Part shown: positions 18,701 to 64,000 of the stretch, piece after piece
How positions within the stretch are numbered: position 1 is the stretch's first letter
Layout: every line of letters begins with the position of its first letter
NCBI GenBank assembly: GCA_044892525.1
Contig: CM097885.1
Span: forward strand, 37,510,001 to 37,574,000
DNA from: Schmidtea polychroa
Taxonomy: Eukaryota
Direction: 5' to 3'
Length of the DNA: 64,000 nt
Program-made: the position numbers and the translations under genes
The notes under the pieces: model-generated
The model's database searches: none
What the model saw: only the letters and a program-made list of their open reading frames with translations
What the model was told of the DNA's origin: nothing

Positions 18701-21700
18701 ATTTATATTTTTAAATCGAATTTGAAATCGAAAAAATTGATAAAAATGCTATAAATAACAAAAAATGAGATTGGTGAATTAAGTTATTCCTTAAAATAGC
18801 CAATTACACACTATCCATCATCACTTTCATTATATTGATATATGGTGCATTTTTTAGATTTGTCACGGTTCTTTATGGTATTAATAACGTTGCTGATTCT
18901 TTGTGTTACTGATTTCGATACTATAGGAGATTTTAGTAGCGAACATGAATGAAAGATATTCCGAGTGGTATTTTTGTTTCCAATCGTTTTTGGTGCCCTA
19001 CTCGAATAAAATATTGATTGTAATGTGAAATAATGTTGCTTTTCTGTTATTTATAGTCTGTTTTTAGTTTTATCGATAAAATGAATAAAGAATTTAACAA
19101 ACCATTTGAACGCGATGTATTCAAACTTTTGATCGATATTATTGGTTAATTGGTCATACAAATAAATATAAAGAGTTTATTAGATAAATAATCAATTAAT
19201 GCATTAAATTTTGTAAAAATCAATAAAATTATAAGTTTAATATATATAATCGATTTACTGTCAGAAATATCTAATAAGTGGATAGAATATCACTGGGGGA
19301 GGTTTAAGCACAGAAAATCAATAAACGGTATAAAATACTGATCATAATAAAATCCTTGGAATAGGATTTGACAGCAGAGGATATGACGCAGCGTGGTATA
19401 TCTAGGAGTGAAGAGAAAGCCCATTGATTGAACACTCACCTAGCCAATAGATATTTCAATGTGATCTATTGGTATACTGAGTTCATCTGTAATGGGTAGC
19501 TGTCAATATGTTAATCCGATAAAACATCATTGGAAATGTATTGGTATGTGTCAAACACAGAAAATCAATACACAAAATGAAACGTGCCGTTTTAATTGAC
19601 AGTTAAAACAAACAAAAATCCAAACCTATACGCAAGGGCTAGCCAATTAATTATAATCAAGCAATCGGTTTCTATTGGACAAAAGGTATTGGTAGAGATA
19701 TATTGGTTAATGGACCACCCTATGACAATGTAATGACATTATTATTGAAATCGATAAACGGCAAGCCATTGGAGATGCCCATATGAGCCTGATATTCTGC
19801 GCGCATTGCGTCCAGCAAATAATCTATAAAGGGAATCAAAGGGGGGGGGGGGAGTAACTCGGGATATATTCAATTATGCTATTGACATTTTATAATTATG
19901 CTAATGAAATACACTACTAATACTTACGATAGCGGGACGATAATTAGAAATGGACCGTTGACCTTCTTGCGTTCCATGAGGTACGTAATCAATCCAATAG
20001 TCTGGATGGTTTTCCCTAGACCCATTTCATCAGCCAATATGCCATTGAGATTGTTGTTATAGAGCGAGACGAGCCATTCAAGACCCTTCAATTGATACTG
20101 TTTCAGAGTTCCGTTTATTAGGATCGATGCCTGCTCCTTGATTTCCTCGTGATGGGAGTGAGCCAGTGCGTAATACGATTGGATGTGTGATTTATTATAC
20201 TCATCATCCTCAGTTCCAACATGGACATCGTCGTCATTATCGTCCTCTAATACTTCATCGTAGCCTTTCATTTCTTCGTCTTCCTGGAATATTTCCAATC
20301 CTTGTTCGTCTTTCAATGACAATCTCCATTCTTCGTGTTCTTTAATCCAGGCAATGAGATTTTTCGCTTGAGGTGATTCTTCTTCGAGTCTTTCGCGAGT
20401 TGTCGGATTGAATATCGGAATATGTTCATCCTGAGGTAGCAATGCGACATAGGACTCCAATTTGCCAGCGATTATGTCTCTTGTGATATTGTTCAATTCG
20501 TTTTGCGATTTATTGAATCTCTGTGTCAGATACGCTATTATACTGTCATACTTCATCTGGCTTCGTTTTTCTTCTCTTTCTTTCTTTTTACGATGAATTT
20601 GTTCTTTTTTATGATCTTTAACCAATTTCGTTAGACCAGCAATGAATTCATCGGTTTGTTGCAACAAATAATGTAATCGCATATCTTTCTTTTCGTCGAT
20701 TAATTTTCTATATCCCTCTTCGTCCTCAGCCATCAATCTTCTCATTCTTTCTCGTTCTAATCGCTCTTGTTCTTTACGTTTATCCCGCTCAGTGTTAGCA
20801 AAGTAATTCATGATTCCTCGATTGATTTTGTTTAATTTTGAGCTGCAATTTCTATGGAATTCTCTAAATTCTTTTGCGTGCAACAAAACAGCATTAAGGA
20901 ATTCTTGATGCTTTTGACGGCGACGTTTCTCTTGCTCATGTTTCATTTGCTTTTCTAATTTTTCTGTAAATCGTGCTTCTCTGAGAGTTTGTTTCTTCGG
21001 TCGACGATATGCTCGAACATTTAATGCCGTTTCTAATGAAGTGTCTTTTTTCATGACATTTAATATTTCCTGTCTTAGACTTCTTTGCAAACCCAACAGC
21101 CGCAATGCCTTTAACTCAATTTTGAGATTCATATTTTGTGAATTGGATAGAAATGCTGATTTGTTTGTCAATTCATCTATTCTTTGTATTATCCTTGCTT
21201 CAATTCTATTTTCTCGTTCTCTTAACAACTCTTCTGGATCTAATGCCTCTGGTCTTCGAGCTTGCTTAAATAAAGTTTTCCCACATGATGCTTTAATATC
21301 TCTCTGAACCCTTTGTAAAACATCATTATTATTAGAATTTGTTGTCGTTGCTGGATCAGCTTGCCTATTTGATATATTTTGTAACTGATTAAGTTTACCT
21401 TCAGCTGCCATTATAACTGCATTTGATACAGGATTAGACTTTGCTAGTAATTTATAAGCATTAATTTGCGCACGAAGTTGTAATAATTGATTGTTATCAA
21501 AAATTCCTTTTTTAGGAACAGTCGGTTGAGAAGCTGAACTAGCTTCAGGTGGCATAGAATTCTGGGGGAAATTGTTTACAGGAGGCATGTAGTTACCAGA
21601 ATTGACGTTAGAATTATTTTGATTTGGAATTTGCATAGTAGCTATAGGATTATTGATAGGTGCGTTTATAACCTGAATATTGGAACAAGTAGCTGGAGAA

Positions 21701-21747
21701 GCAGGCATTGGTTGATTTGGACCAAAACCATTGTTGTTTGCATACAT
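9727..21747 (-). CDS. brm: SWI/SNF chromatin-remodelling ATPase brahma (SMARCA2/4 orthologue), 9 coding exons, ~1449 aa
   Basis: Exons read by hand with GT-AG and consistent phase: 21747-19928, 16903-16726, 16681-16220, 14982-14692, 14635-13844, 13021-12843, 12796-12589, 12527-12356, 9974-9727 (sum 4350 nt). Domains: QLQ, HSA, BRK, SNF2 ATPase ([40 protein letters not shown]), SnAC (RKEVDYSD), AT-hook KRGRGRPP, bromodomain ([13 protein letters not shown]...NAQTYN). The last exon junction is less certain. Confidence 0.95.
10110..10560. repeat. Degenerate ~75-bp tandem repeats in the last brahma intron
   Basis: Recurring ATTGAATATCTATTATATTTTC...TTGAATATTGATTATATTTTAGG units. Confidence 0.7.
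11380..12330. repeat. Degenerate ~240-bp tandem repeats in the last brahma intron
   Basis: About 4 recurrences of GATAAATTTC...TGTGTAAAATCAATTATTT...TTATTAATTAA...AGAAATTCAATAAAA. Confidence 0.65.
15250..16165. repeat. ~19-20-bp AT-only minisatellite (TAATAAATATTATTCATAAT) in brahma intron 3
   Basis: Dozens of near-identical units read directly. Confidence 0.9.
18130..19230. repeat. Three degenerate internal duplications in brahma intron 1
   Basis: TTT(T/G)GTGC(T/C)CTAC...AATATTGA.T.TAATGT recurs near 18150, 18400 and 18990 with similar downstream sequence. Confidence 0.6.
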
Positions 21748-23535
21748 TATTGACTGATACTTCCTTTTTTAATTATTCGAAGATTTTACACCTAAACAAT
21801 ATGATTTACAATAAAATTTAAATTATACAATTAAAATAAAAATAAGAAAATAACAGACATATTTCTTGCTATAAATATAAATCAATTAAGACAATAAATT
21901 AAACTAATACTATCACAAAAAAATTTAATTAATTTAAAAAAAATTTAAAGTATAGTGTATACAATTTGATCAGACATGTTATAATTAATATTTAAACAAA
22001 CAAAATGTACAGAACGAATTGTATGCATTTAAATATTATAAAAATTAAAAACAGTAAATATAAAAGAAATTGAAATTTTTACTTTGAAGTAATTCTTATT
22101 TATCTTGAAATATTTTAATTGTATAATGAAAAGAATTTTTATATTATTAATTAATGAAGTCCGTATTTTAAGCAATAAATAATCAAGCAAAAAGAACAAA
22201 ATACTCAATTTAAACAAAGACTTTTCTTAAATTTTTATTATCATTACTACACACGAAAGATTATTAAATCCTAAGAGATAACGAAGGTCCAACGTTAAGA
22301 CTACTAAAAATAAATCGATCACACCCAATAGAACTTCTGGTATTACATGTTTATTATTTTGGTGCATCTTAGGGAGCTCTAAATTTAGCCTCTGTCCTGG
22401 GTACCAAAATACTTTCCTAAGGCCCTGGCTGACATGACTAGTTTATTAGGTGCTGCTTCAATCATATTTGTCTGACACTCCCCATTTTAACCGAGTTTTT
22501 TAAATTAAGTTTCTTATTTAGTCACACAAGGCATATAGATGTGGAACAAAAAAGTAAATTTTTTAGGAAACCAAATAAAAAATATCATAAATCATCAAGT
22601 AAGATACCTTTTTATATTATCACTCAAATTAACTAAACAATCTATCTTGGCCCAGAATAAGTTTTAATACAAACTGGGCGGCCGATCAACGTGTTACTGA
22701 TCTTCATTGAAACATATTATAATACAATGCACTTCTCTTTATGTATTATAATTGTTATGTATCGTAACAAATGTATACGAAAGGCAGTGTCAAATACCAA
22801 ATTGTTTACTTTCTACTTAGAAATTTAATTATATATAATATTAGAGTTTCTAATACTAATTATCGTTTGTAGAAAAAACCGATCACAGTTTTCAAAACAG
22901 ATAATTGAATTTTCAATTTTTGTTTAACAATTTTATTCATAACCAAGACTTTCAAACATTAAATCACCTTGCTTTTGTACAAATTTCTTTTATGGGTTCT
23001 AATCATCACTGGTTTATTAAAAATGTTTGAGCAGGGATTCGGTCTTATCTGTGAGTTCTAATGGATATGAATCCGAATGACTTTCCAAATTTCGCCAGTG
23101 TTCGGCCTAAATTTAATAGTGTCATTTTTCTCAGAAGCATCTAAATGTTGGGGTTCAGTAGGAACCGGAATTGAAGGTTCAAAATTAAATAATAATTAAT
23201 TAGAAGTATGATAGAAATAGTAATTAAAAATTACCTAAAATAGAAATTAAATACTAAAATTAAAACTAAAATATAATTAGTAATAAATAATTACTAAAAA
23301 TAGAATTATAGAAATTATTTAAAAATATATAATAAAAATAGTAATTAAACAATTACTATTAATAGAATTAGGTAAGTAAAAAAAATTATATAAATAGCAG
23401 ATGAAAATTAGATTGAGGGAGGAGAGAAAACGATCGGATTAAAAGTAGTTCAAAGCAAAAGTCGACCTAAATCAAAACTGATTAGCTCGCATTAAGAGAC
23501 AGATAGATACAGATAATCATTTAACAGACTTAGTC

Positions 23536-24228
23536 AGTAGGGTATTGTGTGGAGTCGGGAACAAAGACATATGACGTCATCAATGACGTCACAAAGACAT
23601 ATGAGTCATACCCCCAGAGGAGAATTTTTTAAAACAAAGACCATGACTCATCGTGATGACTCATCGTGATGACTCATCGTGGTGACTCATCGTGGTGACT
23701 CATCGTGATTACTCACCGTGATGACTCATCAAGGTCATATTATTATTTTTAAAAAATATTATTATTTTATTTTTAAATATTTTCAAAGTTCCCGCCAACG
23801 AAAATTATTCATCGATAGCTCATTTTAAAGCTCAATCCAAGACCTTTCGAATGAGCTATTGAAGGTATCATCATCATTAATATTGACAAAGTTATTAACA
23901 AATGATGACCACCTTATTTTCATAGTGAAATTATTATTATTATTCAAAATATTATTAGTGGTCCAGCGGAGTCCTGGTTTTCGTTTGCCCAAAAGTTATC
24001 GTTCCAATCATTTAATTTCATTGTTCGATAGCTCATTTTAAAGCTTAGTGCAAGACCTTTCGAATGAGCTATTGAAGGTATCATCATCATTAATATTGAC
24101 AAAGTTATTATCGTTTTCCCGAGACCATTTTCAAGGTCATATAATTATTATTAATCTATATACTCCGAGTCTATCCGACAAAATATTCTGTCCCTCTATG
24201 GGTACAGTTCGTAAGGGTACTGGTCACG
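23536..24228 (+). mobile_element. Terminal module 1 (putative Polinton-like terminus) with CRE/AP-1 array
   Basis: Begins AGTAG. Contains two TGACGTCA sites and 13-bp GTG(A/G)TGACTCATC tandem units. From CAAGGTCATATTATT to GGGTACTGGTCACG it matches 56210-56713 on both sides of the gap there. Confidence 0.55.
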
Positions 24229-24508: not shown

Positions 24509-25037
24509 ATGTCGCAACCAAATTTTAGTGAAAATGTTCTAAACGGAATTGTCACCGCGAATATAGTCGACAGCCTCAATTTCCTGATCAATCGAACTGA
24601 ACAAATCATTGAAGGTGAACATATCGATTATCAACAAATGATGGAGATAGAATCCCTGGAAACCAAGAAGTTATACTTCAATAGAATATTTCAGTGTCTT
24701 TTCGATGAAGACATGAAATGGACAAGGATAATTGTAGGATTCACCTACATGAAGATAATCATTGCAAAAGGTCAACATGACTCAGAACATTATTATCAGT
24801 GGTCTTTAGAAGTAAGATTTCTTTTATAATCTATATTTTATTAATATTCATTTCTAGATAATCAAGTCCAAGTTTACCCCATGGATAGAAGCCAATGGCG
24901 GATGGGGTGTATTAAATAAACTGGCCTGCAATTTTAAAGAAACTGATGAAATCAAAAGAAAAATGAAAAACTATATAAAACTTACAACTGGAGTTGTTAT
25001 AATGTATATTTTCTGTAGATATATGAATAAAAATTAA
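24509..25037 (+). CDS. Bcl-2 family protein, 160 aa, two exons (24509-24811, 24858-25037)
   Basis: 46-bp phase-0 GTAAGA...TTCTAG intron. BH1-like LFDEDMKWTRIIVGF in exon 1; BH2 FTPWIEANGGWG and hydrophobic tail LTTGVVIMYIFC in exon 2. Confidence 0.85.
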
Positions 25038-29998: not shown

Positions 29999-32623
29999 CA
30001 GGGGTTCCCAAACTTTTACCAGTCGAGACCCACTATTTAGACCGCAAAGTTTTCGCGACCCACCTGCAAATAAAACAAGAAAAAAGCTAAAAATGTTGAT
30101 TTACATATTTATTTAACACGCATATTTAAGAATAATTAATAGGATGAATGAGATGAATGAGCCTGCTTTCTATTTTTTGCAATAACATCTTCGACATCTA
30201 CTTTTATATTTGTTGTTATTAAGCGAAGTGAGTTTGATAGCTGTAATTTGTTGCGATATTTATTTTTTATTGCAATCATTGACGAAAATGCAACCTCGCA
30301 TAGATAAGAAGTTGTGAAAGGAAGCAATACTTTTAACGCTGCGGTGTGTAAAGTTGGATATGTGTTTTGCACCGATAACCAAAACTGTAACAATTTCGTA
30401 CCGTCAAAATGTAATTTAACAACACTATCTTCGAATAGCTCAATTAATTCCTCATCCGCTATCGTCGATATACCGGTAACTAAACCACTTTGAAATGGAT
30501 TTTGAACCCATGTATATTTTTCTAGATTTTTCATTTCTCCATAGAAATAAAAATCAAAATTTTCTTTAAGTCTGTCCAAATGCTCAATTATTAAAGAAAT
30601 TAAATCGTTATTGGGCGTTACTTCATTTTCAATGATAAAAGTTTGGAATGTATCAAAGCAGTCATATTTATTTTCTTGAACATTATTTTTCCACAACATA
30701 AGTTTTTTTGTAAAAGCTTTTATTTTACCATGAACCGAAAATATATCAATTCCATTTGTTCCTTGTAATTGTAAATTTAAATCGTTCAATTTCGAAAATA
30801 TATCTGCTAAATAAGTCAGCAAAACTACATATTTCACATCGCGCAAATTTGATGTGTACTCATCTTGTTTATGTTCATGTAAATATATTGCTACTTCTTC
30901 GCGAAGTTCAACAAGTCTTGTCAGGACTTTGCCTTTCGATAGCCAGTGGACTTCTGTATGCAGCAGAAGAGATTTATGTAAACTTCCCATCTCTTCGCAG
31001 AGTTTTTGAAATAATCGTGATTGTAATGGTTTGCTCTTAATAAAATTTACAATTTTTATAGCAGTGGTCAAAACAGTATTTAGACTTTTTGGTATATTTT
31101 TGGATACTAACGCTTCTCTATGAATAGTGCAGTGAGTCCACGTTGCATTTGGACATTTTTGAAGACAACGTGTCACAGCACCACTGTTTTTACCACACAT
31201 TGCTTTTGCACCGTCGCTACATATTCCGACGCAGTTTTTCCAATCCAGTTTTTTCAATGTTATATAAGTGTCGAGCGTATCAAAAATTATTTCACCAGTT
31301 CCTCGAATGATTGGTTCACAAAATAATATGTCTTCAAAGAACTCGTTGCACCATATAAAACGTATGAAAATAATTAGTTGGGACAAACCTTGTACATCAG
31401 TTGATTCATCCAGTTGCAACGCAAAAAGTCCACTAACTTGAATTCTATGGATAAGCTTATTTTCTACCCATTCGGACATTTCATCAATTCTACGAGCAAC
31501 TGTGTTATTAGAAAGTGGAATTGATTCAACTTCTTTTAAGCTCTGCTCTCCAAACATAATTCCAACAGCATCTTTTATAGCTGGAAGTACTAATGACTCT
31601 CCAATAGTGTGCGGTTTACCGGATTGTGCAATTCGCAAACTAATGAGATACGAGGCGAACATAGCCTTTTCATTAATGCTGATGAAGCGAGAAAATAGAT
31701 TTTTTGAATTATTTAATTCCTGTAATTTGGTTTTAAAATAATCAATAGGCTTATTTTTTAAATCGGAATGTTTCGTCTCAAAATGTCGTATTAATTTGTT
31801 AGGTCGCATACTTTCATTAGCCAGAATTTCTTGACAAATAACACACTGTGGGCGTGGATCATCTTCTTTTCTATTCCATGTAAATCCAAATTTTAGATAT
31901 TCAGAATCATATTTTCTTTTGCCACGTTTTGATGATTGCGAACTTGTTGAAGGATTCTCACCAAATTTTCTCTTATTATCTGTTTTTGTTGCTACAGAAC
32001 CTTCTTTTTCTTTTTCATTTTCAATTGTTTGATTTTGCCCAGGAGTCTTTTTCAACCACATATCCATCGCAGCAATGGTTCTTTAAAAATAAGAATATTA
32101 AGAACTTTATTTATTACATGAAATACTATAGCACTAAATTTAAAAAATACTTACATTTGATTTTAAATTATGTTTTTTTATTAACGAAACACTTTTATTA
32201 ACAATATATATAAACTTTTTTATTAACAACACAACACCGTACTTAGTCCAAAACAAAATTTGCACTGGTTGTCTGAATATTTAAAGTTTGTAATCCTAAA
32301 TTTCTAATTAACCGTTATTTGTGTTTGGTTGCCTGGTTAAAATGTAGAAAAGTGGTTGCTATGATGCGATTATTAAAAACAAGTTCTAAATACAAAAATT
32401 TGCTAAAAAGAAGTTTAATTTTTAAACCACCTAAAAATATGCAATAATTTTTTGTCGCAAACCTACTTATATATAAATATTGTGACAAGTTCAGTAAAAG
32501 CAAATTAATATGCTCAGTAATACAAATATTAAATTTTTGGCTAAATATTAAATTTTTGGCGACACACCGAAAATAGCTTCGCGACCCACCAGTGGGTCGC
32601 GACCCACACTTTGGGAACCGCTG
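29999..32623 (-). mobile_element. Full-length hAT Buster/Charlie-type transposon
   Basis: TIRs CAGGGGTTCCCAAA / TTTGGGAACCGCTG with perfect 8-bp TSD GTTTATAA (29991-29998, 32624-32631). Subterminal GCGACCCAC repeats. Confidence 0.95.
30136..32067 (-). CDS. Buster/ZBED5-like hAT transposase, 643 aa, open ORF
   Basis: BED-like CVIC...RHFETKH, LQLDESTD, CSDGA, CTIH (CxxH), EVHWLS and YLCEVAFS. Confidence 0.92.
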   Translation of the reverse strand: MDMWLKKTPGQNQTIENEKEKEGSVATKTDNKRKFGENPSTSSQSSKRGKRKYDSEYLKFGFTWNRKEDDPRPQCVICQEILANESMRPNKLIRHFETKHSDLKNKPIDYFKTKLQELNNSKNLFSRFISINEKAMFASYLISLRIAQSGKPHTIGESLVLPAIKDAVGIMFGEQSLKEVESIPLSNNTVARRIDEMSEWVENKLIHRIQVSGLFALQLDESTDVQGLSQLIIFIRFIWCNEFFEDILFCEPIIRGTGEIIFDTLDTYITLKKLDWKNCVGICSDGAKAMCGKNSGAVTRCLQKCPNATWTHCTIHREALVSKNIPKSLNTVLTTAIKIVNFIKSKPLQSRLFQKLCEEMGSLHKSLLLHTEVHWLSKGKVLTRLVELREEVAIYLHEHKQDEYTSNLRDVKYVVLLTYLADIFSKLNDLNLQLQGTNGIDIFSVHGKIKAFTKKLMLWKNNVQENKYDCFDTFQTFIIENEVTPNNDLISLIIEHLDRLKENFDFYFYGEMKNLEKYTWVQNPFQSGLVTGISTIADEELIELFEDSVVKLHFDGTKLLQFWLSVQNTYPTLHTAALKVLLPFTTSYLCEVAFSSMIAIKNKYRNKLQLSNSLRLITTNIKVDVEDVIAKNRKQAHSSHSSY

Positions 32624-35879: not shown

Positions 35880-37910
35880 TTGAGTATCTAAAAATCAATT
35901 TGCACAGGGCGCTTCGACACAATTAAGGCTCACATTTTTAGAACTTCATCCAGACCTAATATATGCAAATAACATGATATTAGTGGAGCGCATTAATCCA
36001 GTCGAACATTGTTAAATCCAAATTTTCAAACTCCACTGTATCTGGATATTTTATAAATTTTGTTGTGTCTTCAAAACTTTCTAAACTGAACAAAACGCAC
36101 TGAAAATAGTTCGAGGGTTGCGTCGATTGTCTCTAAAAATAACAAAATATGAGCTTCTTTGACAACGGTTTCTTGGATTTCTATTTCAGTATAAAATCTT
36201 TTAAGTCTTTGAAAATATCGAAACTCTTGTTTTTCCAAATCACGTTTGAAAATTTTCAACTTCTTTTCAAATGCTTTTATAACGTCAAAAGCCTTGTCAA
36301 CGGTTTTTCCAAAACTTTGCAACTTAGTGTTAAGTTCATTTAGATGTGAAGTAAAATCTGTAAAGAACATTAGTCTGCTGAGCCAGTCAACATCAGTTAA
36401 CTCTGAATACTTCTGTTTGTTGTCTTCCATAAACATTCGAATTTCAACAAGACATTCCACGAAACGTTCCAGCACACGACCTCTGCTAAGCCAGCGAACA
36501 CTATTGTACATTCGTAACCCAGAGTAAACGGACTGTACTTCATTTAACAGCAGTTCAAATTTTATCTTATTCAAAGCACGAGTAGTAATGAAATTTACAA
36601 TTTTTGTTACAATTTTCATAACATCTTCAAGTTCCTTCAAACCAGATTTTGCACACAAGGCTTCTTGGTGCACAATACAGTGAAACGCAACCAGTGGGTG
36701 TCCAACATGTTTCGTAAAGAAATTCACGAAACCCGAATCTTTTCCAGTCATACTTGATGCACCGTCAGTAGTTACAGAGACTATTTTATTTACGTCTAAA
36801 TCTGCATTTTTACGTTCATCCACGACGTTTTGGCATATTTCTGCACCCGTTGTTGTTCCAGATAATTTGGTTAGTTTTATTAGTTCTTCGCGCATTTCGT
36901 TTTCTTTCGGATATCTAGCAATGATGGTTAATCGAGCAGAGGCTGTTACATCAGTACTCTCGTCCAGGCAAATAGAGAAGGCCTGACATAACTTGATGTT
37001 TTCTTTTAATTGATTCTCAATATTTGAATTCAAGTTAATTATTCTCTCTTTTACTGTATTTAGACTAATAGGCAGATCTTTCATTCGTCTTTATTTGGAA
37101 AATCTTCAAACAAATATGGCTCAAATTCTAGCAAAGTTTCTTTGATGTAATCACCATCACTGAAAGGCTTGCCATACTTAGCTATTATTTTGGAAACTTC
37201 AAAACTTGCAGACACTAAATTAGATGTACTTTTAACAAACTTTACAAACGAACAGGAATGTAAATTTGCATTTTTAACTGCCGCAATATATATTCTTTTT
37301 GTTCATCCTCGCTTTTGCCAAGAAGCCACTTGTGATTACTTTCATAGTGACGTTTAACTGAAGATGTTCGACAAACAACGCTTTCAGAACACAAGACACA
37401 CAAGGCCTTACTTTGTTAGTTGATTATCCATATCGTTCAGTCCACCAATCTTGGAATTCCCTGCCACTTCCTTCCTCTGAATGTTTTATTTTTTTTTGCT
37501 ATGAACACGACATTTTATTTAGCAAAATTTCTATTTTTAAATTATTAAATATTTACAAAAAAAATTCAATCCTTCACCAATAATAATGTCAACAAGATGT
37601 CTGCGTCATCAAATTCGTGCGCATCTTAACTTGTTTATTTTTACTTGTTAAAACAAATTCGGAATATACAAAAAATGATAGAAAATAATTTATAGATTTA
37701 ATCATAAGAAATATATATTCTGCCATCTGAAAATGACCTATTGTTCGATTCCTAGTTAACGGTTTCTAAATTATTTGCACAATAAAATCATGCTGAAGTG
37801 TTAAATTGCGATTTCAATGATTTTATACTACTAAAATTTACACAAATTTGTTTTATCCAAAGGTTTGGCGTGCCACTTTGGGCACGCGTGCCATAGGTTC
37901 ACCAGCGCTG
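35880..37910 (-). mobile_element. hAT (EPM2AIP1/GTF2IRD2, OposCharlie-like) transposon, frameshifted
   Basis: 5' terminus CAGCGCTGGTGAACCTATGGCACGCGTGCC at 37910. ORF 36071-37084 has SICLDESTD, VTTDGA, CIVH and VRWLSRG. N- and C-termini are frameshifted and the 3' TIR was not found (possibly in the gap). Confidence 0.85.
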
Positions 37911-51098: not shown

Positions 51099-51166
51099 CA
51101 AGAGGTAGGACAATTTTATTAATTAGTTTTTTGTGAATGTTGTAATTTTTTAGATTTATTAGATTT

Positions 51167-51763
51167 TTGAATTTGAATGGATTTAGAGAGTTGTTAATGA
51201 TGGCTGCTTTTAATGAAGAAATTTATGAATCTGATAACTCAATGGAAATTGGAAATACTACCAACGAAACTGATGGTTCCTTTTTTATGATCCTAAGAGA
51301 TCCTGATAACTTTAATGGTGTTTTTGGCCAACTAATATTAAATTTATTTGGTGGATGGATTTCCGTGGGTATTCGATGCAATAATTGTGATGTAGTAGCT
51401 ACACAAAGAAAGGTTCCAGATAAAATGATTGAGAAGAGTTCAGCTACAAGATTGTTTAATATTACTGAGAGTACTGGAGGTGTTATGACTGGTATGATCC
51501 CTGATTATCGATCTCAAGTATGTCGTGCACAAATGGAAGCAGCTCGATTTAGATATAAACATGGATATGAAATGCCTTGCGACATAATATGTCGTTCTAT
51601 TGCGGATATTAAGCAGCTTTCTACCCAATCAACTGAGATGCGACCATTAGGTTGTTCAATGATGGCATTATCTTATGGTATTGACATGGACAAATTGTTA
51701 TTATTCAAAAATAAAATTATTATTCGTGATCTTGAATTTAAACATGAACATTGTTGTAAATAG
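51167..51763 (+). CDS. PSMA6: Chimeric ORF containing an internal fragment of proteasome subunit alpha-6
   Basis: GGWISVGIR...VATQRKVPDKMIEKSSATRLFNITESTGGVMTGMIPDYRSQV.RAQMEAARFRYKHGYEMPCD...IADIKQLSTQSTEMRPLGCSMM matches the middle of PSMA6. The conserved N-terminal FDRHITIFSPEGRL and the C-terminal half are absent and replaced by unrelated sequence. Possibly a pseudogene. Confidence 0.7.
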   Translation: MNLNGFRELLMMAAFNEEIYESDNSMEIGNTTNETDGSFFMILRDPDNFNGVFGQLILNLFGGWISVGIRCNNCDVVATQRKVPDKMIEKSSATRLFNITESTGGVMTGMIPDYRSQVCRAQMEAARFRYKHGYEMPCDIICRSIADIKQLSTQSTEMRPLGCSMMALSYGIDMDKLLLFKNKIIIRDLEFKHEHCCK

Positions 51764-53851: not shown

Positions 53852-55468
53852 TTCTAAATAAATCTGATTTACTAAAAGTCTCTTTCTTTTCCAAAGTACA
53901 TTCTTTAGTTTTTCACTTACCTTTTCAGATTTTTTTTATGGACACGTTAAATTTTTCTCTTATTTCGTTTTTCTGGTTTTTGGTGACCAATTGAGAGATT
54001 TAATAATTATTTTTATAGGGAATTCTTTTTTTGTCACAATCAATAATTAAATTTCCTGTCATTTTCGCCAACCTCTGAAAATTTGTTCCTAATGTAATTT
54101 TTTTATTTTTTAAAATTAATTAATTTATATTTCTTTAATAACTTTGTCTAGTGGTCAAATAGATTTTATATTAATATATTCGTGTTTATGTTTGTCATAT
54201 CATTTCCCACTCTCTAAAATATCCGTTTTCCCCAAAAATATTAATTTTTAATTAATTAAAAATTCAATTGTTATTTTTGAAATTTTTTTAAAAATTGTGC
54301 TTTTTACTATTTTGCACACAGATTTCTATGCATTTGAACTTTATTTTACACCATTACAGATAATCACAACATAATTAATATAATAATAATTATTACTATA
54401 ATAATTATATGACTAAATATTCATATAACAAAATCAAAATGTGAGCTAATAATTAAAATTATAAATGTAAGTATAATCATTATTTTTTGACTTCCGGCAT
54501 TGGGAAATATGAATCCATTCAATGGTAAATGATCATTAGATATAATTGTTATGGGATTCTGGATAATGATGGACACTTATGCGTATACATATGTCCACAA
54601 AACGCACTCCATTTCATCAATGAGCAATTCGATAAATATTAAAATGTTCTGATAATAAATCAGGATTAGTTGCATTAATTTTACAATATTTGACAACAAA
54701 TACATATACAATCAGGAAATATTCCACAAAAATATGGGAGGAATAAACCAATCACGGAACAATTTGGGAATATTTTATGTATGATATTAATATTTACATA
54801 ACAAATATTGTTAGCTATATAGAATCTCTGATGTCTCCTAGTTTTACTTGATGTATTTATATAATTGTTCTATTACGATTGCGCAGGTATCAAATTCTCC
54901 AAGCTGATAGCAGAAAATCTGCATCCATTATTCAAATATATAACGATATAACTATAACTATAATCAGTCTGGATAGAGAGTATTTAGAGATAAATGTTTT
55001 TTTACTAATGCATCTTTACCGGGTGTCATTCAATATTTACCATTTTCGTTTGCACCGGTTGAAATCGAAATATTTTATTTAATTTTCCCATTATCAGTTC
55101 ACGTATGTAAATAATATATAAAATAAAAAAAACATTATAAATCGATAAAACCTTATGTTTAAAAATAGAGTTTTCGTAAGTTAAGGAATTTTAATTATAA
55201 TTAAAATATATTTTATATCAATGACTTTAGAATTCTAAATATAATAATAATAATATATAATTCAATCTTTTAAATTGTTTAAATTGAACTTTTCAATATT
55301 TAAGAGAATTTGTTAAAATTTGATGAATTTAAATTAAAAAATTATTAAAAATAATGTATATTTTTTAAAACAATAAATAAATAAATTCACAAAGTAAGTT
55401 CTAAAGTTTCATTGAAAATACAATTCTTTTTCAAATAAAAATTATTTTCAAAATTAAAGTAATTAGTA

Positions 55469-56713
55469 AGTAGATGGATTGGGCACCGCTAGCACAGGGC
55501 ACCGCTAGCACAGTACCCCCCTCCCCCTCCCCCGGTCGTAAAATTTTTAAAAAATTCTAAGTCTAAAAGTACATTTTTTTTCAAGGTCAAATTTGAACAA
55601 AGACATATGACTCATCAAGGCCATTGAAACAAAGACCGTGACTCATCCTATGACTCATCAAATTTCTCAAGGTCATTTAAACAAAAACCATGACTCATCC
55701 TGTGACTCACCAAGGGCGTTTTCAAGGTCATATGACTCATAATATGACTCATCGAGGTAAAAAAATTTCCAAGGTCATTTAAACAAAGGTCATGACTCAT
55801 CAAGGTCATTTTCAAGGTCATCTGGGTCATCCTGTGAGTCATCAAGGTCATTTTCAAGGTCATATGACTCATCCGATGAGTCATAAAAATTTTCAAGGTC
55901 CTTTAAACAAAGACCGTGACTCATTCAAGGTCATTCTCAAGGTCGTATGACTCATCCAAGGTCATTTTCAAGGTCATATGACTCATTCAAGGTCATTCTC
56001 AAGGTCATATGACCCATACTATGACCCATCAAAATTTTTCAAGGTCATTCTCAAGGTCATATGACTCATACCATGACTCATCAAAAATTTTCAAGGTCAT
56101 TTTCAAGGTCATCTGAGTCATCATATGACTCATCAAGGTCATTTTCAAGGTCGCATGACTCATCCAAGGTCATTCCCAAGGTCATATGAGTCATTGCGAT
56201 GAGTCATCAAGGTCATATTATTATTTTTTTTATTATTTTTAAAAAATATTATTATTTTATTTTTAATTTATTCGAAGTTCCCGTCAACGAAAATTAATTA
56301 TCGATAGCTCATTTTAAAGCTCAATCCAAGACCTTNNNNNNNNNNNNNNNNNNNNNNNNNNNNNNNNNNNNNNNNNNNNNNNNNNNNNNNNNNNNNNNNN
56401 NNNNNNNNNNNNNNNNNNNNNNNNNNNNNNNNNNNNNNNNNNNNNNNNNNNNNNNNNNNNNNNNNNNNNNNNNNNNNNNNNNNNNNNNNNNNNNNNNNNN
56501 NNNNNNNNNNNNNNNNNNNNNNNNNNNNNNNNNNNNNNNNNNNNNNNNNNNNNNNNNNNNNNNNNNNNNNNNNNNNNNNNNNNNNNNNNNNNNNNNNNNN
56601 NNNNNNNNNNNNNNNNNNNNNNNNNNNNNNNNNNNNNNNNCTATATCCTCCGAGTCTATCCGACAAAATATTTTGTCCCCCTATGGGTAATGCTCACAAG
56701 GGTACTGGTCACG
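55469..56713 (+). mobile_element. Terminal module 2 (putative Polinton TIR) with AP-1/nuclear-receptor motif array
   Basis: Starts AGTAG, then a GGGCACCGCTAGCACA direct repeat and a C-tract. About 20 TGA(C/G)TCA and about 20 CAAGGTCA by hand count. The tail is shared with module 1. Lies next to the RING and pPolB genes. Confidence 0.55.
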
Positions 56714-56821
56714 CTCAACAACTCACAAATCAACAAATCAACAAAACATACATTTATTTAAACAATAAAATAATGTAAAATTAACAAAGGTAAACTAAAT
56801 ATTGATGTACTACTATTTGTC

Positions 56822-57358
56822 TTACATGTATATAATATGATATTCATTAATCAGTGTTGAACAGGCTTGACACTTGCGAACACTCTTCTCGTGACACTTA
56901 GAACAAACAATTACGTGACCACACGGTAAATAAAAAACCGAAACTCGATTTTCTTTACAAATTGAACAAGTTAAATACCTTTTCTTAACATCGTTCAGTT
57001 TTTTCGTTAGCTTATTTTCAATCAAATCGGCTTTCGCTATCCATTCATAAATCAATCTACTATATCCCGGTTTCAACCTTAAATACATACAACTCCAAAA
57101 GTATTCATTCAGTGAATCGTTGTTTACCACTGTTTTTTCTAAGAACATTAAATAACAAGATAACTTGAAAATGGATTTCTCATAATTAAATAAGTAGGTA
57201 GTTAGTAGCCCGCGGGAACAATAGGGGGGGGGTAAAAATGTTGCAAACTTTTGATTGCATAACTTTTTCCTAGACATTTTTTGATTACATAATGCCGTAA
57301 TGCCCAATGTTTTCTGGGATTTTAAATACAAAATTTTTTTTTTCAATAAACAAGCCAA
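56822..57358 (-). CDS. IAP/MDM2-type C-terminal RING protein without BIR (true start uncertain, possibly M at ~57145 or spliced)
   Basis: C-terminal CSICKENRVSVFYLPCGHVIVCSKCHEKSVRKCQACSTLINEYHIIYM* matches the IAP-like RING spacing and ends a few residues after the last Cys. Confidence 0.75.
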   Translation of the reverse strand: MACLLKKKILYLKSQKTLGITALCNQKMSRKKLCNQKFATFLPPPYCSRGLLTTYLFNYEKSIFKLSCYLMFLEKTVVNNDSLNEYFWSCMYLRLKPGYSRLIYEWIAKADLIENKLTKKLNDVKKRYLTCSICKENRVSVFYLPCGHVIVCSKCHEKSVRKCQACSTLINEYHIIYM

Positions 57359-57519
57359 GGATAAATATTATTTGGGTGGGTCTCCTTGGTCCTGAGAATT
57401 TCAATAGAAAAAGGTAGTCTTCAATAAAAAAGCATGGATTTTTCACACAATAGTGAGGGGATCTTCTTGGTCATGAGAATTTCAATAGAAAAGGTGGTTT
57501 ACATTAAAAACGCATAGTA

Positions 57520-58100
57520 AATTTTTAAAATAAAGCAAATTATGGGTCTAAAATTTAAAAATAAAGTAAATGATGGGTCTAAAAAATTTAAGTAAATCAA
57601 GGTTCAGATTTTTTTTGAAATAAAGTAAATTATGGTCTAAATAAGTAAATTATGGGCTAAGATTTTTCAATTAAAGTAAATTATGGTCCAAATTTTTAAA
57701 TTAAAGTAAATTTAGGTTCTAAAATATTAAATTAAAGTAAATTTAGGTTCTAAAATATTAAATTAAAGTAAATAATTGTTCAAAATTTAAAATTAAAGTT
57801 AATTAAGGTCTCAACTAAGTAAATTAAGGTTCAAATTTTTAAATTAAGTAAATAATGGTTCTAAAAAAATTAAAATAAAGTAAATTAAGGTCCTAAAAAA
57901 TTAAATTAAAGTAATGAATGGGCACAAATAACTAAATTAAGGTTCTAAAAAATTAAATTAAAGTTAATTAAGGTCCAAATTTTAAAATTAAGTAATCAAT
58001 GGTAAAAAAATTTAAATTAAAGTTAAATAAGTAAATTAAAGTAATAATTTTTAAATAAGTAAATTAAAGTAATGTAATAAGTAAATTAAAGTAAGATTTT
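57520..58100. repeat. AT-rich ~27-30-bp tandem array (AATTAAAGTAAAT..GGT.C) between the RING and PolB genes
   Basis: Direct reading. Followed by (AAT)n at 58284-58343 and ACACATAA-containing repeats at 58375-58510. Confidence 0.8.
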
Positions 58101-58283
58101 TAAATTTATTAACAAAAAATAGAAGATGTTTGAGAATTGAAATTTTTTAATGAAAATTTTTATGAAATAATTTTTTAATTAATTTTTAATAGAAATTTTA
58201 ATGAAATATTTTTCAATGATAATTTTTAATGGAAATTTTAATAGAATAATTTTTAAGATAATTTTTAATGAAAATTTTTATGA

Positions 58284-58348
<65 letters not shown>

Positions 58349-58540
58349 TAATATTAATAATATATCAACCAAATGTTATACAACACATAAAAAATTAACT
58401 AAACACATAAAAATAACTAGACACATAACAAAACATATAAACATTAACTAAACACATAAAAATGAACTAGACACATAACAAACATAAAAATTTACCAAAC
58501 AAATAACAAATGTATAGATATAAACTTTTATTTAATAAAA

Positions 58541-61500
58541 TTAGTCCTCATCGGACAAAATAACGTCATCGATATCGATGTCATCTTCTCCAAAATCTTC
58601 ATTTAATTCTTCCTCATCTTCTCCAAAATCTTCATTTAATTGTTCCTCATCTTCTCCAACATTTTCATCAAATTCTTCATCAACATTTTCTCCAATATTT
58701 AATTCATTTAATCTTACATGCCCATATGCAAGACTAGTATTTTTCCCCACCCAAACCCTTTTGTCATCTTTGTTTGTTAGTGCTATTTTTGTGTTTTTAA
58801 TTGTAAAAATTTGATGATTTTTGCTTGTTATTTTAGTCTGAGGAACCGAAAAAATCTGGTTAGTGTTATAACAATCCAGGTATGACTGATGTTTTATGTC
58901 ACTACCTTTCAATGTTACACATTTAGCCTTTTTTGTTTCCTCATCACCCAACAAGCTATAACATTTAGGTCTAAGAAAAACCCACTCCTTATATTTAAGA
59001 CCTTTATTCTCGTCTTTGAACTTTCCAATGACTGAATCAAGGTTCTTACTATATAAGGAATGACAACTATTGTAATTGGAAGTATCCAATAAATTATCTC
59101 GAATCATTGCAGGTAAAAGAACCTCAAGTTTACAGTTAATGACTTCGAGGAAAAAAGAATCCGTATCACCCGCAACGATATTAATTTTACAATTAAACTC
59201 ATTGCGAAATGATTCCAGATCCTTATATTGCAACTCATACATTCTAAGTTTAGATAGATCAAGTACAGATTGACCAATGTAACTTGGTCTATCTAAACAT
59301 ATAGAATCTGAATTCAATAGTGCTGCGATTAAATTATCTGCTATTTTAATAGATTTTTTAAAAGTCGGTTTTGACGAATATTTAACTAATTTACCAGCAG
59401 TTGTACAAAGACGAAGATTCATTCTTCTCTTTAAATTTTCAACTGTTTTGCCGTATAAACTGTTATTTAGCAATTTATAATAATTTTTATCTAAGTTATT
59501 TATGCTTTTTGATCTTAATTCGGTATTTGTATCTATATATTTTTTAAAAATTGGTGATTGCTTAAATCTTACACCCCTATTTACACGTGTTACTTTAACA
59601 CTAAGTTCCAAATATAATTTTAATAATCTCCAATGAATAACATAATTAGATTTTGAAAGATGAGTTAATAATAATTTTTCAACCTTAGACCCAGCAGGTT
59701 TCATTTTTTCAGCAGCAACAGGGAAATCATCCAACTTATCATGAAGCTCAGAAGGAATTACAAGATCAACTTCAAGAGTGTATCCATAAGACAAAGATTC
59801 AAGATTTAAATTCCTACATTCATCCATTATTTTATCAAATCCATCAAGAACCCAACTAAATTCGCCACAAGGTAATGATTGACTTAAAGCCCAGCCATAA
59901 AGATTATTAATATCTATATATAGTAACTCGGTGTTCTCGTCGGTTTTTACGTAATGCTTATTCACAAAAGTAAGACCGCCTCTTATTCCACCCTCATAAA
60001 AGCTAAACATTTCGTTTTCAGTTATGAGCTCAATTGGTTCATTTAAAGACATTAATGCAGAAGACCAAGACATACCTGGAATTCCGAAATAATTCAATGG
60101 TTCCAATCTATTGTGAGCAATGGATTTCAACCTAAACTGATGAAAGAAATCAGCCAAAAGAAAACAATCAAGTTTTAGGTAGATCATCATATAATCTAAT
60201 AAAGTTCGGCAATTAGTTTCTACCCAAATCTCCTGAGCTTTTTCATACTCAAGCTCAGTAACACCCTCCCAGATTGGTGGTAATTCATAAGTAGTTTGGA
60301 GAATATCTAAAGAAGTGGCGAAATTATAAGGGAAGATTCCTTTTTCAGAAACTATAGTACCAGAAAAAGCAGAATTAGCAAAAGGCAAAGAATTCAAAGT
60401 TTTGACTGCTTTAGCCAAAGAATCATTGACAAATTGATATGAATCAATGAATCTTAGGCTAATTTTGCCTAAATGAGCAATCAAAGATATAAATTTTTCC
60501 GTAGTTATTGGGATGCACCCTAAAGTCCAATTTTTAAATTTATTTAATCCGTATTTAAGTATATGATGCATATCGTATCCCTTCAAGTTGTGAAATACGA
60601 TAGGCAAAATTTTATTTATTTTTCTATTTACGTTACATGTGCTACAAGCTGCACCCAAGTATTTGCCCGTAAAATGATCGTGATCTCTAACAGGATCCAC
60701 GATAGATTTCAAACAAAGATAACAAACCGATGAATTAACGAATTGTTGTTGCCCAATTTTCGTTAATTTAATCATAGGTTTCCTACCCATTTTATAATAA
60801 AAAGGAAGAACCTTATTTAATGCTATATCCTCTATAGCACTTAAAAAACTCTCGACGCAATCTAAACCTATGAATTGTTGATAAGATTTAGATCCGCCAA
60901 AGTTATTTACTAGTAAAAGACCAGCAGATATTGGCATGTGTCGTTGGAGATGAAGATTATCAGAAGGTAAAATAGCCTCAAAATTGGCATAAACTACAAA
61001 AGGAGGAGTTACTGTTTTCGACCAGTCAGTAAACTGCAATAATTTATTTTGAGGGAAAGTATAAAGAGTTGTTCCTAATTGATTACGTTTACATAATATT
61101 TCATGTTTTTCCAGTGCGTTTCTATTTTTAAAACCATTCAAACACCGATGACACCATATTGATTGTATGCGTGTAGGACAACTAGTGTTTATGTGGCAAT
61201 TCAATAACTTATTTAAATTGCTTATAGCAACGTAATGGAAATTGTTTCCTTTATTTAATAGTAGTAAATTAATTACTGTTCCATTTAAAACTTTGGAACG
61301 ATGTATAATGTCTAAATGTGGATGTTTTAAAACGTAATTATCTGTTAATTGTTTGCTATTGTCATAAGAAAAAACATTAATTATTAAGCCGGGATTTTTG
61401 GCCTCAAATTTTCTAATGTCTTTTAATTTCATGGGTAAATCTAATGGATTATATATTAACTCGGATAGATTATAACTGGATGTCCTATTTCTATATTGTC

Positions 61501-62988
61501 TAACAACCTCATCATATTTTAAAATAGCTAAAATGCTATATAAAAAACATGAATCATCGGTGTTTTTTATATTAATTAAACAATATTTATTTTTTAGACA
61601 AGTAAGTAGTTCAATGAAACTCCTACCACTTAATCTACTTAACCTACTTATCTTTGTTATGGTGAAGTGGATTTCTGTTATTTTTTTTATGATCCAGCTA
61701 CTTCCTAACTCTGTAATATTATTTATTTTCTCGTTTAGTTCCATAATGCCTTCGTCAAAAAATGTTGAAGTTAAAGGTTTTGCGTAATTGGAGATATTAT
61801 TAACCTTTATTTCCCCGTCTTTTTCAAATTCGATAGTTATTCCGAATTGAATTTTGACGGAGCCTAATTCGTTAATAATATCTCTCAATTTTATAATTAA
61901 TTGTTCAGGAAATATTATTTCCTTTATATTTAAGTCGCTAGTATTTAAACTTAATATTTGATGGGTACCCCTTAGATCTTTTTGTATTATGGGAACATTA
62001 CCCCCTATTTGTATTATATTTAATCCGACCTGGGATTCAACAAAAGGCAATCCGACCTGGGATTCAACAAAAGGCAATCCGACCTGGGATTCAACAAAAG
62101 GCAATCCGACCTGGGATTCAACAAAAGGCAATCCGACCTGGGATTCAACAAAAGGCAATCCGACCTGGGATTCAACAAAAGACAATCCGTCCTGGGATTC
62201 AACAACCAATCCATCATTGGATTCAACAAAAGACAATCCAGCCTGGGATTCAAAAGAAGAAGTATCTAATTTAATTTTTTTATTTGTATTATTTTTTTCT
62301 ATAGTTGAGGGTCTTTTAAAAACACTATCTTTTTTAAAATTAAACCTATCTAAATGATTTTTATGTTTATTATAAAAAACGCTATTTGTTACAGGGTCAC
62401 TAGTCTTACATACGGGACATATAAAATATGTTTTATTATAATATTTTTTCGTGTAATAATTCTCCATTATAGAATGGCAATTATTATCATGTTCTTTCGA
62501 TGAACAATAATTTGGATAAAGTATACCTATAAAATAAAAATTTAATAAAAAAAAATATATATATAATTTAAATGAAATATTTTAATAAATGTTTACGCAA
62601 AAATTTACAAATTTTATTTACAAAAAAATAAAAATTTACTAAATTAAAAATATTAAAATTTAATTAAATAAAAAATTATATTAAATTTCCTTTAAATTAT
62701 ATAAAAAAGTAATCAATACTTACATTGTAAATTTTCATTTCGATTTATTGACACATTGACATAATTTTTCTCTTTATTCGTATTACCTAAATTATTAATT
62801 AATTAAATCAATAAATAAAAAATTATGTTTACTTTTTCTTTTCAAATTTCTTTTAATCTTCGATTTTAAATTGTCTTCATTAATATTATCTAAATTAATT
62901 AATAAATTAATTAATAAATAAATTAAAATTTACCAAATTCCTGAATTTTTCCTCGAACATTCATAACGTTTTCTATTAAAGAATTCAT
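58541..62988 (-). CDS. polB: Polinton/Maverick (adintovirus-like) protein-primed DNA polymerase B; long exon 62526-58541 plus predicted 5' exons 62988-62934, 62889-62833, 62786-62724 (~1386 aa)
   Basis: GSSW terminal-protein-like region, OTU-like INIKNTDDSCF...HY, ExoI YANFE, EndoVII-like CYLC...DHDHFTG...C..CN, ExoII FHNLKGYD, ExoIII YLKLD, motif A YIDINNLY, motif B KLLNNSLYGK, motif C GDTDS. The 1308-aa ORF is certain; the 5' exons are a manual prediction. Confidence 0.93.
62022..62255 (-). repeat. 27-bp coding minisatellite (GLPFVESQV)n in the PolB N-terminus
   Basis: AATCCGACCTGGGATTCAACAAAAGGC: about 5 perfect plus about 4 degenerate units. Confidence 0.95.
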
Positions 62989-64000
62989 TTTTAAAGGTTA
63001 ATTATTTGTTAAATGTGAATAATGATTGATTATTGTTTATAGATTATTATTGTTTATAGATTATTATTGTTTATAGGAACAAATTCTAACCAATCAAAAT
63101 CAAGGAAGGGTAGGGAAAAAATATATTACGTTGCGGTATTTTAAAATTAAAATTTATTTTAAAAACACATTTTGACGTTAAAGTCGAGTTATGTAACAAA
63201 GACATAATAAACTTATTATTTACTACAAATATTTCACCTATCAAATACCTAACTAGAGATGATATATATTGATTGTTCATAAAAGCAAACTTAATCATAA
63301 ATTTCTGTATATTATTTTGTAAATTATTTCTGTAAATTAAATTTTGTATATTATTTCTGTAAATTATCAAGTAAATTTAAAGTTCTTGATAAGGTTAACT
63401 GGTTTCTTAGCTTATGTTTTTTTTAAAAAGTTCATCAATGTGTAAATATTCTTAGAAAATTATTGATAAAAAAATATTTAGTCAAATGCATTACAAAGTC
63501 ATCTAAAATTAAACCAATTACTTAATTATTAACATAACAGTCATTAAAAAAAAAATTAATTTTTATTTAAAATTTAACAAATTATCAAGAAATTCAATTA
63601 AAATCATCATTAAAACTTTAAATTTTTTAATAAATCAACATGAAATTCTTAGAAATATGAAAAAAAAAATATTATTACAAAGTTATATCCTATCACATGA
63701 TTATTAACCTGACTGTCATTAAAAATAATTTTTATTTAAAAAAAAAACCAATCAATTAAAATGCATCCAATTATCAAGAAATTAATTAAATTTATCTTAG
63801 AACTAACTTAAAATTTTTAAATATTCATTCAATCCACATGAAATTCACGAAAATGATAAAAATTCACAAAAACCATCAACTCTAAAAAAAATACTAATGA
63901 ATACCTTAAACACCAAAATTTATCTAAATAATCTTTCAAATTAATTCATTAAAATTGAAGACAACACGCTCTATTTTGTCATTACATTCAATTAAAATTA

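Follow-up and report, generated by a model that had tools for sequence, protein, structure and literature searches.

Arrays of AP-1 and nuclear-receptor words at Polinton ends in a planarian genome: putative landing pads for host factors

What could pack AP-1-like and nuclear-receptor-like words into a few hundred base pairs of a planarian chromosome, and what might they do there? We addressed this question for 64,000 nucleotides of Schmidtea polychroa DNA (GCA_044892525.1, contig CM097885.1; hereafter the window), in which an earlier note, made from the letters alone, had described such an array and taken it for a stress- and hormone-responsive enhancer that activates a mobile element.

A word scan of window 55580-56220 (641 bp) counted 21 TGA[CG]TCA (AP-1) words, 16 of which have the form ATGA[CG]TCAT and 20 of which fit RTGASTCAY, the extended form of the AP-1 site. 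They are interleaved with 21 nuclear-receptor (NR) words of the form [TC]CAAGGTCA, every one on the + strand; the looser YCAAGGYCR gives 24. The third recurrent word, ACAAAG, which resembles a Sox/TCF site, occurs four times, and the AP-1, YCAAGGYCR and ACAAAG words together cover 67% of the stretch. The remaining 63 kb of the window hold 11 AP-1 sites, seven of them in the end of a sister element at 23.6 kb (family B, Table 1), and 3 extended NR sites. The density is real, with 21 and 21 words against at most 2 in dinucleotide-preserving shuffles (n = 300; means of 0.20 AP-1 and 0.14 NR sites), and the words fit the AP-1 and NR5A/FTZ-F1 consensuses as had been claimed. Trinucleotide-preserving shuffles already contain 6 sites on average and up to 13. 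The enrichment proposed as a check was thus found, far above shuffled counts, but we rejected it as evidence on its own, since for a repeat it is uninformative: the repeat nature alone explains it. Because shuffles show only repetitiveness, copy-to-copy variation was taken as the real test.

The AGGTCA-n6-AGGTCA pairs with a 12-bp period were confirmed (7 in the array). We rejected a DR6 heterodimer element for them because both halves have a 5′ extension, and the pairs are read best as two tandem monomer sites. The claim that unit spacing varies did not hold up. Across copies, spacing is mostly fixed: 12 bp in 86% of 747 AP1-AP1 neighbours, 12 bp in 86% of 729 NR-NR neighbours and 11 bp in 83% of 927 NR-AP1 neighbours, with AP1-NR looser (7 bp in 44% of 1285). 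What differs between arrays is the number of units, their order and the spacer letters.

The array does belong to a mobile element. Searching the region against its own genome (781 Mb, 1,012 contigs) gave 51 matches from the best 40 of 3,318 candidates, and nearly all of them begin at one point, window 55469. An exact 21-letter end pattern finds 833 + 851 = 1,684 ends in the genome, and a control pattern 0. In the window copy, the array starts 112 bp inside the TIR of this family, which we call family A (Table 1).

Table 1. Features of the window related to the array (window coordinates)
Feature	Position	Strand	Content or evidence
Family B end	23536..23737	+	2 CRE (TGACGTCA), 7 AP-1 (mostly 13-bp period), 3 ACAAAG, 1 NR
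6 flanking bases, candidate target-site duplication (TSD)	55463..55468	+	adjoin element end
Family A TIR (about 1.35 kb), polymerase-side end	55469..56817	+	matches both ends of complete copy
Extreme terminus: AGTAG start, C-rich tract	55469..55533	+	sequence; end pattern 833+851 matches
Two copies of 16-bp unit in family A terminus	55481-55513	+	sequence
Motif array	55581..56215	+	21 AP-1, 24 YCAAGGYCR, 4 ACAAAG words
Inner TIR block	56641..56817	+	highly conserved in family A; related block in B, C
RING-finger gene, 3′ part	56822..57192	-	Pfam zf-C3HC4_3 E 1.7e-9
Family C element inside family A	57193..64000	+	TSD TAAATA at 57187-57192

One complete family A copy (C1:152485077-152503208, 18.1 kb) carries the array in both TIRs, which form a 1.26-kb pair that is 93% identical, with AGTAG ends and a 6-bp TSD. 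A perfect 6-bp TSD was likewise present in 27 of 33 adjacent +/- family A end pairs lying 5-45 kb apart. The integrase (Pfam rve, E 1.1e-5, under the curated cut-off) also has a chromodomain, and the polymerase was recognized as PHROG 1907 DNA polymerase (E 2.4e-19); polymerase-B-like motifs are seen in a related window ORF. Pfam and PDB sequence searches of the element ORFs returned neither a polymerase nor a capsid match. Complete copies encode a packaging ATPase (Pox_A32, E 4.8e-7), an adenovirus-like protease (Peptidase_C5, E 4.8e-5) and further TBP-like and RING proteins. They also encode a double jelly-roll major capsid protein: its structure model (pLDDT 93.5) led Foldseek to iridovirus, PBCV-1 and mavirus capsids, with E down to 2e-17. 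With long TIRs, AG-type ends, a 6-bp TSD, integrase, polymerase, ATPase, protease and capsid, family A is a Polinton/Maverick. The portions of PMC8097293 and PMC6431247 available to us describe such elements as 15-20 kb long with the same ends, TSD and gene set. Family A is judged to be young; the best 110 full-length integrase matches, a best-scoring subset, are 97-100% identical, and 4 contain a stop. No relatives were found in viral contigs, and 166 capsid relatives lack genomic context.

Several smaller observations concern these genes. The TBP-like protein of families A and B has 145-154 aa (Pfam TBP, E 6e-15; L033:3848-4282 and L190:5044-5478, both on the - strand). A weak Bcl-2-like ORF lies near element ends (Pfam E 0.006-0.01; L192:2278-2586 and window about 24510-24830); together with the RING-finger gene of the window (56822-57192), it may represent anti-apoptotic accessory genes.

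The RING gene of the window copy points toward the TIR and is broken by the family C insertion, a mirror image with a polymerase gene on both arms. Past this insertion, family A sequence returns for about 1 kb and is then lost; the partner end was not found, and the 19 kb that follow the window hold no second array. In family C, an in-frame 27-bp tandem repeat of 8.7 copies (62022-62253) lies in the polymerase ORF, toward its N terminus.

For the test across copies we examined 120 of the 1,684 ends: the 30 best search matches, biased to similarity and including the window's own end, and 90 of the first 100 pattern matches listed, all in the first 30 Mb of C1. The array was present in 117 of the 120 ends, in 111 distinct versions, and 100 ends had at least 10 motifs. 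Its median length is 600 bp (range 26-1420 bp). In 25 of 26 TSD-confirmed pairs, the arrays at the two ends of an element were unequal, by a median of 117 bp (one of these pairs being a duplicate of another), whereas the block adjoining the array differed between the two ends at 0-2 of 70 letters (13 pairs). In an ungapped comparison, the inner block differed at 0-2 of 60 letters in 13 of 15 pairs, and at 8 and 21 in the other two. Arrays that are unequal beside near-identical blocks mark the array as a hypervariable minisatellite.

Such turnover invites a neutral explanation, namely that slippage and template switching, seeded by palindromes, build the array, and that its variants reflect mutation mechanism and founder effects. 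The unequal pairs, the wide range of lengths, the abundant palindromes and the presence of some subterminal repeat array in every family are in its favour. We nevertheless hold it to be very improbable, owing to the way in which the words vary.

In the 111 distinct arrays, the NR word TCAAGGTCA has 1,634 exact and 629 single-mismatch occurrences. Its commonest changes are T1C (202), A9G (116) and T7C (57), followed by T7G (51) and T7A (43), the rest being at most 22. The AP-1 word ATGACTCAT has 1,638 exact and 561 single-mismatch occurrences, led by C5G (227), A1G (58) and T9C (42) and then A4G (35); A1T (2) and T9A (5) are rare. The consensus of the FTZ-F1/NR5A element is YCAAGGYCR, according to the accessible part of PMC7239656, and the top three NR changes are those it allows. 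For the AP-1 site, the available text of PMC9662815 gives VTGACTCAB with a tolerant central base and a depletion of 5′-flanking T and 3′-flanking A, and the top three AP-1 changes are those that this site tolerates (the centre and the V/B flanks). The chance of a top-three match is 1/2925 among the 27 changes and 1/84 among the nine transitions, figures that overstate the case because variants are passed on by descent and variation at edge positions is built in. Some of the agreement in rank would arise in any case, since 4 of the 6 tolerated changes lie at word edges and 5 of the 6 are transitions. The ranks were unchanged with one end per element (77 of the 111 arrays).

We then compared columns, with the tested letter never serving as an anchor. 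Core columns change in 0-3.2% of cases, NR position 7 in 7.6-7.7%, the AP-1 centre in 13.4% and AP-1 spacer columns in 12-58%; two NR-NR spacer columns (0-2.7%) are conserved like cores. Positions 4 and 6 of the AP-1 core are mildly raised (2-4%), position 4 being the same letter of the common ATGAC half-word as NR position 7. In a separate count, a common variant was found in 0 of 24 core and 5 of 7 spacer columns (Fisher p 1.2e-4, the columns not being independent); NR-AP1 core columns were excluded from this count because the ACAAAG word contaminates them. The seven core columns of the ACAAAG word itself change in 0.2-1.9% of cases. Cores are thus conserved while spacer letters and degenerate positions vary. 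The motifs are kept, as had been stated, and do not mutate as fast as the spacers.

The types of change point the same way. At the AP-1 centre C>G reaches about 100 per 1000, compared with about 1 per 1000 in the non-array TIR; A>G stands at 83 in the tolerated flank (A9G) against 15 and 12 in the core (A3G, A4G), and T>C at 27 (T9C) against 4 and 15 (T2C, T6C). Every tolerated variant occurs in 4-10 contexts, each context common to at least 3 arrays; for certain core variants the number of such contexts is 2-5, always in small groups. Neutral turnover does not predict change at two interior degenerate positions and in spacers rather than in the neighbouring cores, nor a restriction of A>G and T>C gains to the tolerated flanks, nor the recurrence of this pattern in several contexts and in two families. 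Rare substitutions in non-array TIR blocks run at about 1% per site, the same order as core changes, so that damage to the cores resembles neutral decay following insertion. The tolerated variants look like changes spread during element multiplication. Minor family A subfamilies keep the ACAAAG+AP-1 or NR+AP-1 modules with other spacers.

As the words vary almost only at letters that host factors tolerate, the array is likely a landing pad for host proteins. We consider it somewhat probable that this landing pad has been selected and works as an enhancer or opener at the Polinton ends. AP-1-type bZIP dimers and an NR5/FTZ-F1-type monomeric receptor, possibly with a Sox/TCF factor, would occupy the array, make the silenced ends accessible and activate the element. 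The bound factors could act as a distance enhancer on the internal CCAAT/TATA promoters of the element and could also expose its ends for excision and protein-primed copying. Selection would have operated during multiplication of the element and not after insertion, unit shuffling would keep regenerating the number of sites, and activation might follow wounding, stress or differentiation. The ranks of tolerated variants, the contrast between core and spacer, the recurrence in several contexts and the parallel in family B (below) argue for host factors, together with the candidate proteins of the host, the lack of bZIP and receptor domains in the element ORFs scanned and the reported awakening of planarian Polintons during differentiation. 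Against them stand the following points: C5G is a flip of the palindrome, which offers a mutational alternative; NR position 7 also changes to G (51) and A (43), outside YCAAGGYCR; the unrelated array of family C likewise shows cores contrasting with spacers, and we could name no factor that its words match exactly; and the variants are inherited and amplified, so that their counts are not independent events.

The host has candidate proteins. Its genome encodes Jun- and Fos-like bZIPs and an NR5-type DNA-binding domain whose best PDB hits are SF-1 (4e-32) and NR5A2 (near 1e-31), against 1e-22 for ERR, among the 30 of 53 zf-C4 matches inspected. NR4A-like genes are present as well. Nothing supports the 'hormone-responsive' label of the earlier note; receptors of the NR5 type belong to the orphan receptors. 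Binding of a flatworm FTZ-F1 to an SF-1-type element is described in the portion of PMC8673669 that we could consult. As for chromatin, the accessible parts of PMC8532177 and PMC10558129 report planarian Polintons as piRNA targets or repressed and mostly in the B compartment, and PMC8532177 reports that they gain H3K4me3 and RNA during differentiation. In the same parts, the latter paper explains tissue-specific Polinton activation by a regional change of chromatin rather than by motifs of the element, and the words 'enhancer' and 'motif' are absent from its main text.

We also looked for a bZIP or a nuclear receptor encoded by the element itself and rejected this candidate, as no such domain occurs in 23 ORFs from or beside the elements. 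The sites might instead be bound by another protein of the element, such as its integrase, its packaging ATPase or the product of a small ORF, and their resemblance to the AP-1 and NR5A sites would then be partly chance via the common ATGAC. Both words do contain ATGAC/GTCAT and are most variable at the same letter of it; families A and B have the same type of array and integrase, ATPase and capsid at 93-96% identity; gene-poor derivatives need cis sites only; and the TIRs of Galileo, as far as the available part of PMC3573991 describes them, are long, internally repetitive and structurally dynamic. This explanation seems improbable to us all the same. The host consensuses are conserved over their full 7-9 letters, including the CAAG outside ATGAC, and neither class of DNA-binding domain occurs in the 23 ORFs scanned. 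The one-base step from AP-1 to CRE, the other optimal bZIP site, in family B also fits a host bZIP.

Family B, with 108 exact ends in the genome, differs from family A in its terminus and has a polymerase only 54-64% identical, whereas integrase, ATPase and capsid are 93-96% identical. Two perfect CREs occur in 21 of 28 distinct family B ends and at least one in 25 of 28; of 25 searched loci, 7 did not match the end pattern and were excluded from the set. Besides, AP-1 sites number 1-13 per end, recur every 13 bp and are separated by a spacer unlike that of family A; ACAAAG words and 0-2 NR words are present too. As in family A, the commonest AP-1 variants are A1G, C5G and T9C.

Family C has 169 ends. 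AP-1, CRE and NR words are absent from the first 1.2 kb of 20 of 20 of these; the subterminal array (window 57500-58100) is built on GTAAAT-W-A-W-GG, with a conserved core in 168 units that is vaguely FOX/Hox-like. Since A, B and C each have their own array, subterminal arrays are general here and their words family-specific.

The enhancer claimed in the earlier note has in its favour the consensus match, the mobile element, the constraint on cores and the host factors present. Its purely transcriptional form loses ground, since the terminal gene is oriented toward the array and full arrays persist in gene-poor derivatives. For the same orientation of the RING gene we rejected the array as a promoter of the adjacent gene. 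Family A terminal genes are oriented toward the TIR, and internal ones have their own CCAAT/TATA-like promoter words.

By interior, the 120 ends fall into 77 autonomous-like, 25 derivative-like and 18 in neither class, the derivative class being set by similarity to two derivative interiors only. The 23 distinct derivative arrays are full-size (median 21 AP-1 and 19 NR) with 1.2-1.4% core change, and several derivative ends add NR-only runs with 17-38 bp periods. One inspected derivative is without any core gene and another has only a RING fragment. Mirror-image derivatives with Polinton ends, 12.5-19 kb long and either gene-less or with one gene on both arms, were seen at L035+L036, at L188+L189 and in the window from 57193 onward.

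The derivative arrays suggest a further role of the sites in cis at the ends, in excision or in protein-primed copying, although passive inheritance in young copies is another explanation of full derivative arrays. Host-factor sites occur in adenovirus ITRs and polyomavirus origins, and the host factors proposed here could likewise act on copying only, helping to open or excise the ends or to prime replication there, with no real transcriptional effect. The start of the array about 110 bp from the terminus, the orientation and promoters of family A genes and the full-size arrays of derivatives, some with extra NR-only runs, are consistent with this proposal. We regard it as unlikely. Arrays may pass into the young derivatives passively, through inheritance or exchange, the derivative class rests on two interiors with 18 of 120 ends in neither class, and twenty sites are more than a viral origin usually needs. 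Moreover, reporter assays show strong enhancer activity of the adenovirus ITR/packaging region itself, according to the accessible part of 10.1101/2025.07.20.665756.

Might a host gene nearby instead have taken over the window copy as its enhancer? About 3.7 kb separate this family A end from a proteasome-subunit-like ORF, and the family B end is situated upstream of a coding exon of Brahma/SMARCA, at a distance of about 1.8 kb. However, the window copy is ordinary (82-90% identical to 39 other best-scoring family A ends), and core changes across copies are close to the background rate, with no sign of post-insertion constraint; co-option is thus barely credible. The exon beside the family B end (23536) is at window 19924-21768 on the - strand; nearly all of the top 20 matches of this Brahma ORF are proteins of flatworms, which shows the host to be one. 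Other features of the window (1746-2219, 8001-8567, 30136-32082, 36071-37090, 4728-5438, 51146-51763) are a fragment of a Helitron, ORFs for hAT-type transposases, one RING ORF and the proteasome-subunit-like one, the hAT label of those at 8001 and 36071 being by resemblance only.

How does the array compare with known systems? The accessible parts of PMC8097293 and PMC6431247 give vertebrate Polinton TIRs of 46-1,447 bp. Described Polintons are characterized in these texts by end motifs and TIR length only, unlike the roughly 40 AP-1/NR words and hypervariable unit order seen here. Putative TF sites are mentioned for repeats from C. elegans Polinton TIRs in supplementary fig. S6C of PMC11414722, in the part available. 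In the literature searched, outside which most subscription papers lay, we found no description of host-factor arrays in Polinton TIRs or of Polinton cis-regulation.

By analogy, the array may work like the repeat-rich control regions of DNA viruses. The cytomegalovirus major IE enhancer and retroviral U3 repeats are repeat-built viral enhancers. The polyomavirus NCCR and the adenovirus ITR/packaging region similarly cluster AP-1/ATF and other host sites beside an origin or genome end, and AP-1 sites activate polyomavirus control regions, as far as the available text of 10.1101/2025.07.20.665756 goes. The same text describes such clusters as strongly active in reporter assays and rearranged between isolates. 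Our array differs from these viral enhancers in its far denser sites, in two factor classes interleaved at fixed spacing and in its position at both ends of an integrated element.

The repeats in the TIRs of Galileo/Foldback are taken as transposase sites. These elements share with ours long TIRs with internal repeats that vary in length and structure within and between copies (PMC3573991, in the part available), but they are cut-and-paste elements of the P superfamily, and the repeats here match host factor consensuses. Compared with single sites, the array words have the exact consensus and matching degeneracy of the AP-1/TRE (PMC9662815) and of the FTZ-F1/NR5A element (PMC7239656), with NR position 7 looser than Y, again going by the accessible parts of both sources. 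Such sites normally number one to few per enhancer, unlike in the array.

Family A is young and abundant, and its ends point to particular host factors as candidates; the question of what awakens Polintons/Mavericks in animals thereby becomes testable in a regeneration model. A bolder and doubtful possibility is that flatworm Polinton ends are modular, evolvable host-sensor cassettes, whose few optimal words (AP-1, CRE, NR5, Sox/TCF), shuffled by each family into a hypervariable array, would couple excision and replication of the element and its gene-less satellites to wounding or cell type. If so, family A alone would have scattered about 12,800 copies of a single AP-1+NR5 composite word through the genome of a regenerating animal. 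The 17-letter AP-1+NR composite word has 12,802 exact copies in the genome; these would distort motif-enrichment studies in it and are raw material for wound-responsive enhancers.

Finally, an inverted copy of the terminal unit, 17-43 bp long, lies beyond the array in 15 of 120 family A ends, each subfamily having its own matching version, so the array could be the loop of a single-strand stem. Something similar was seen in family B (5 of 30 ends) and in family C (2 of 20 ends).
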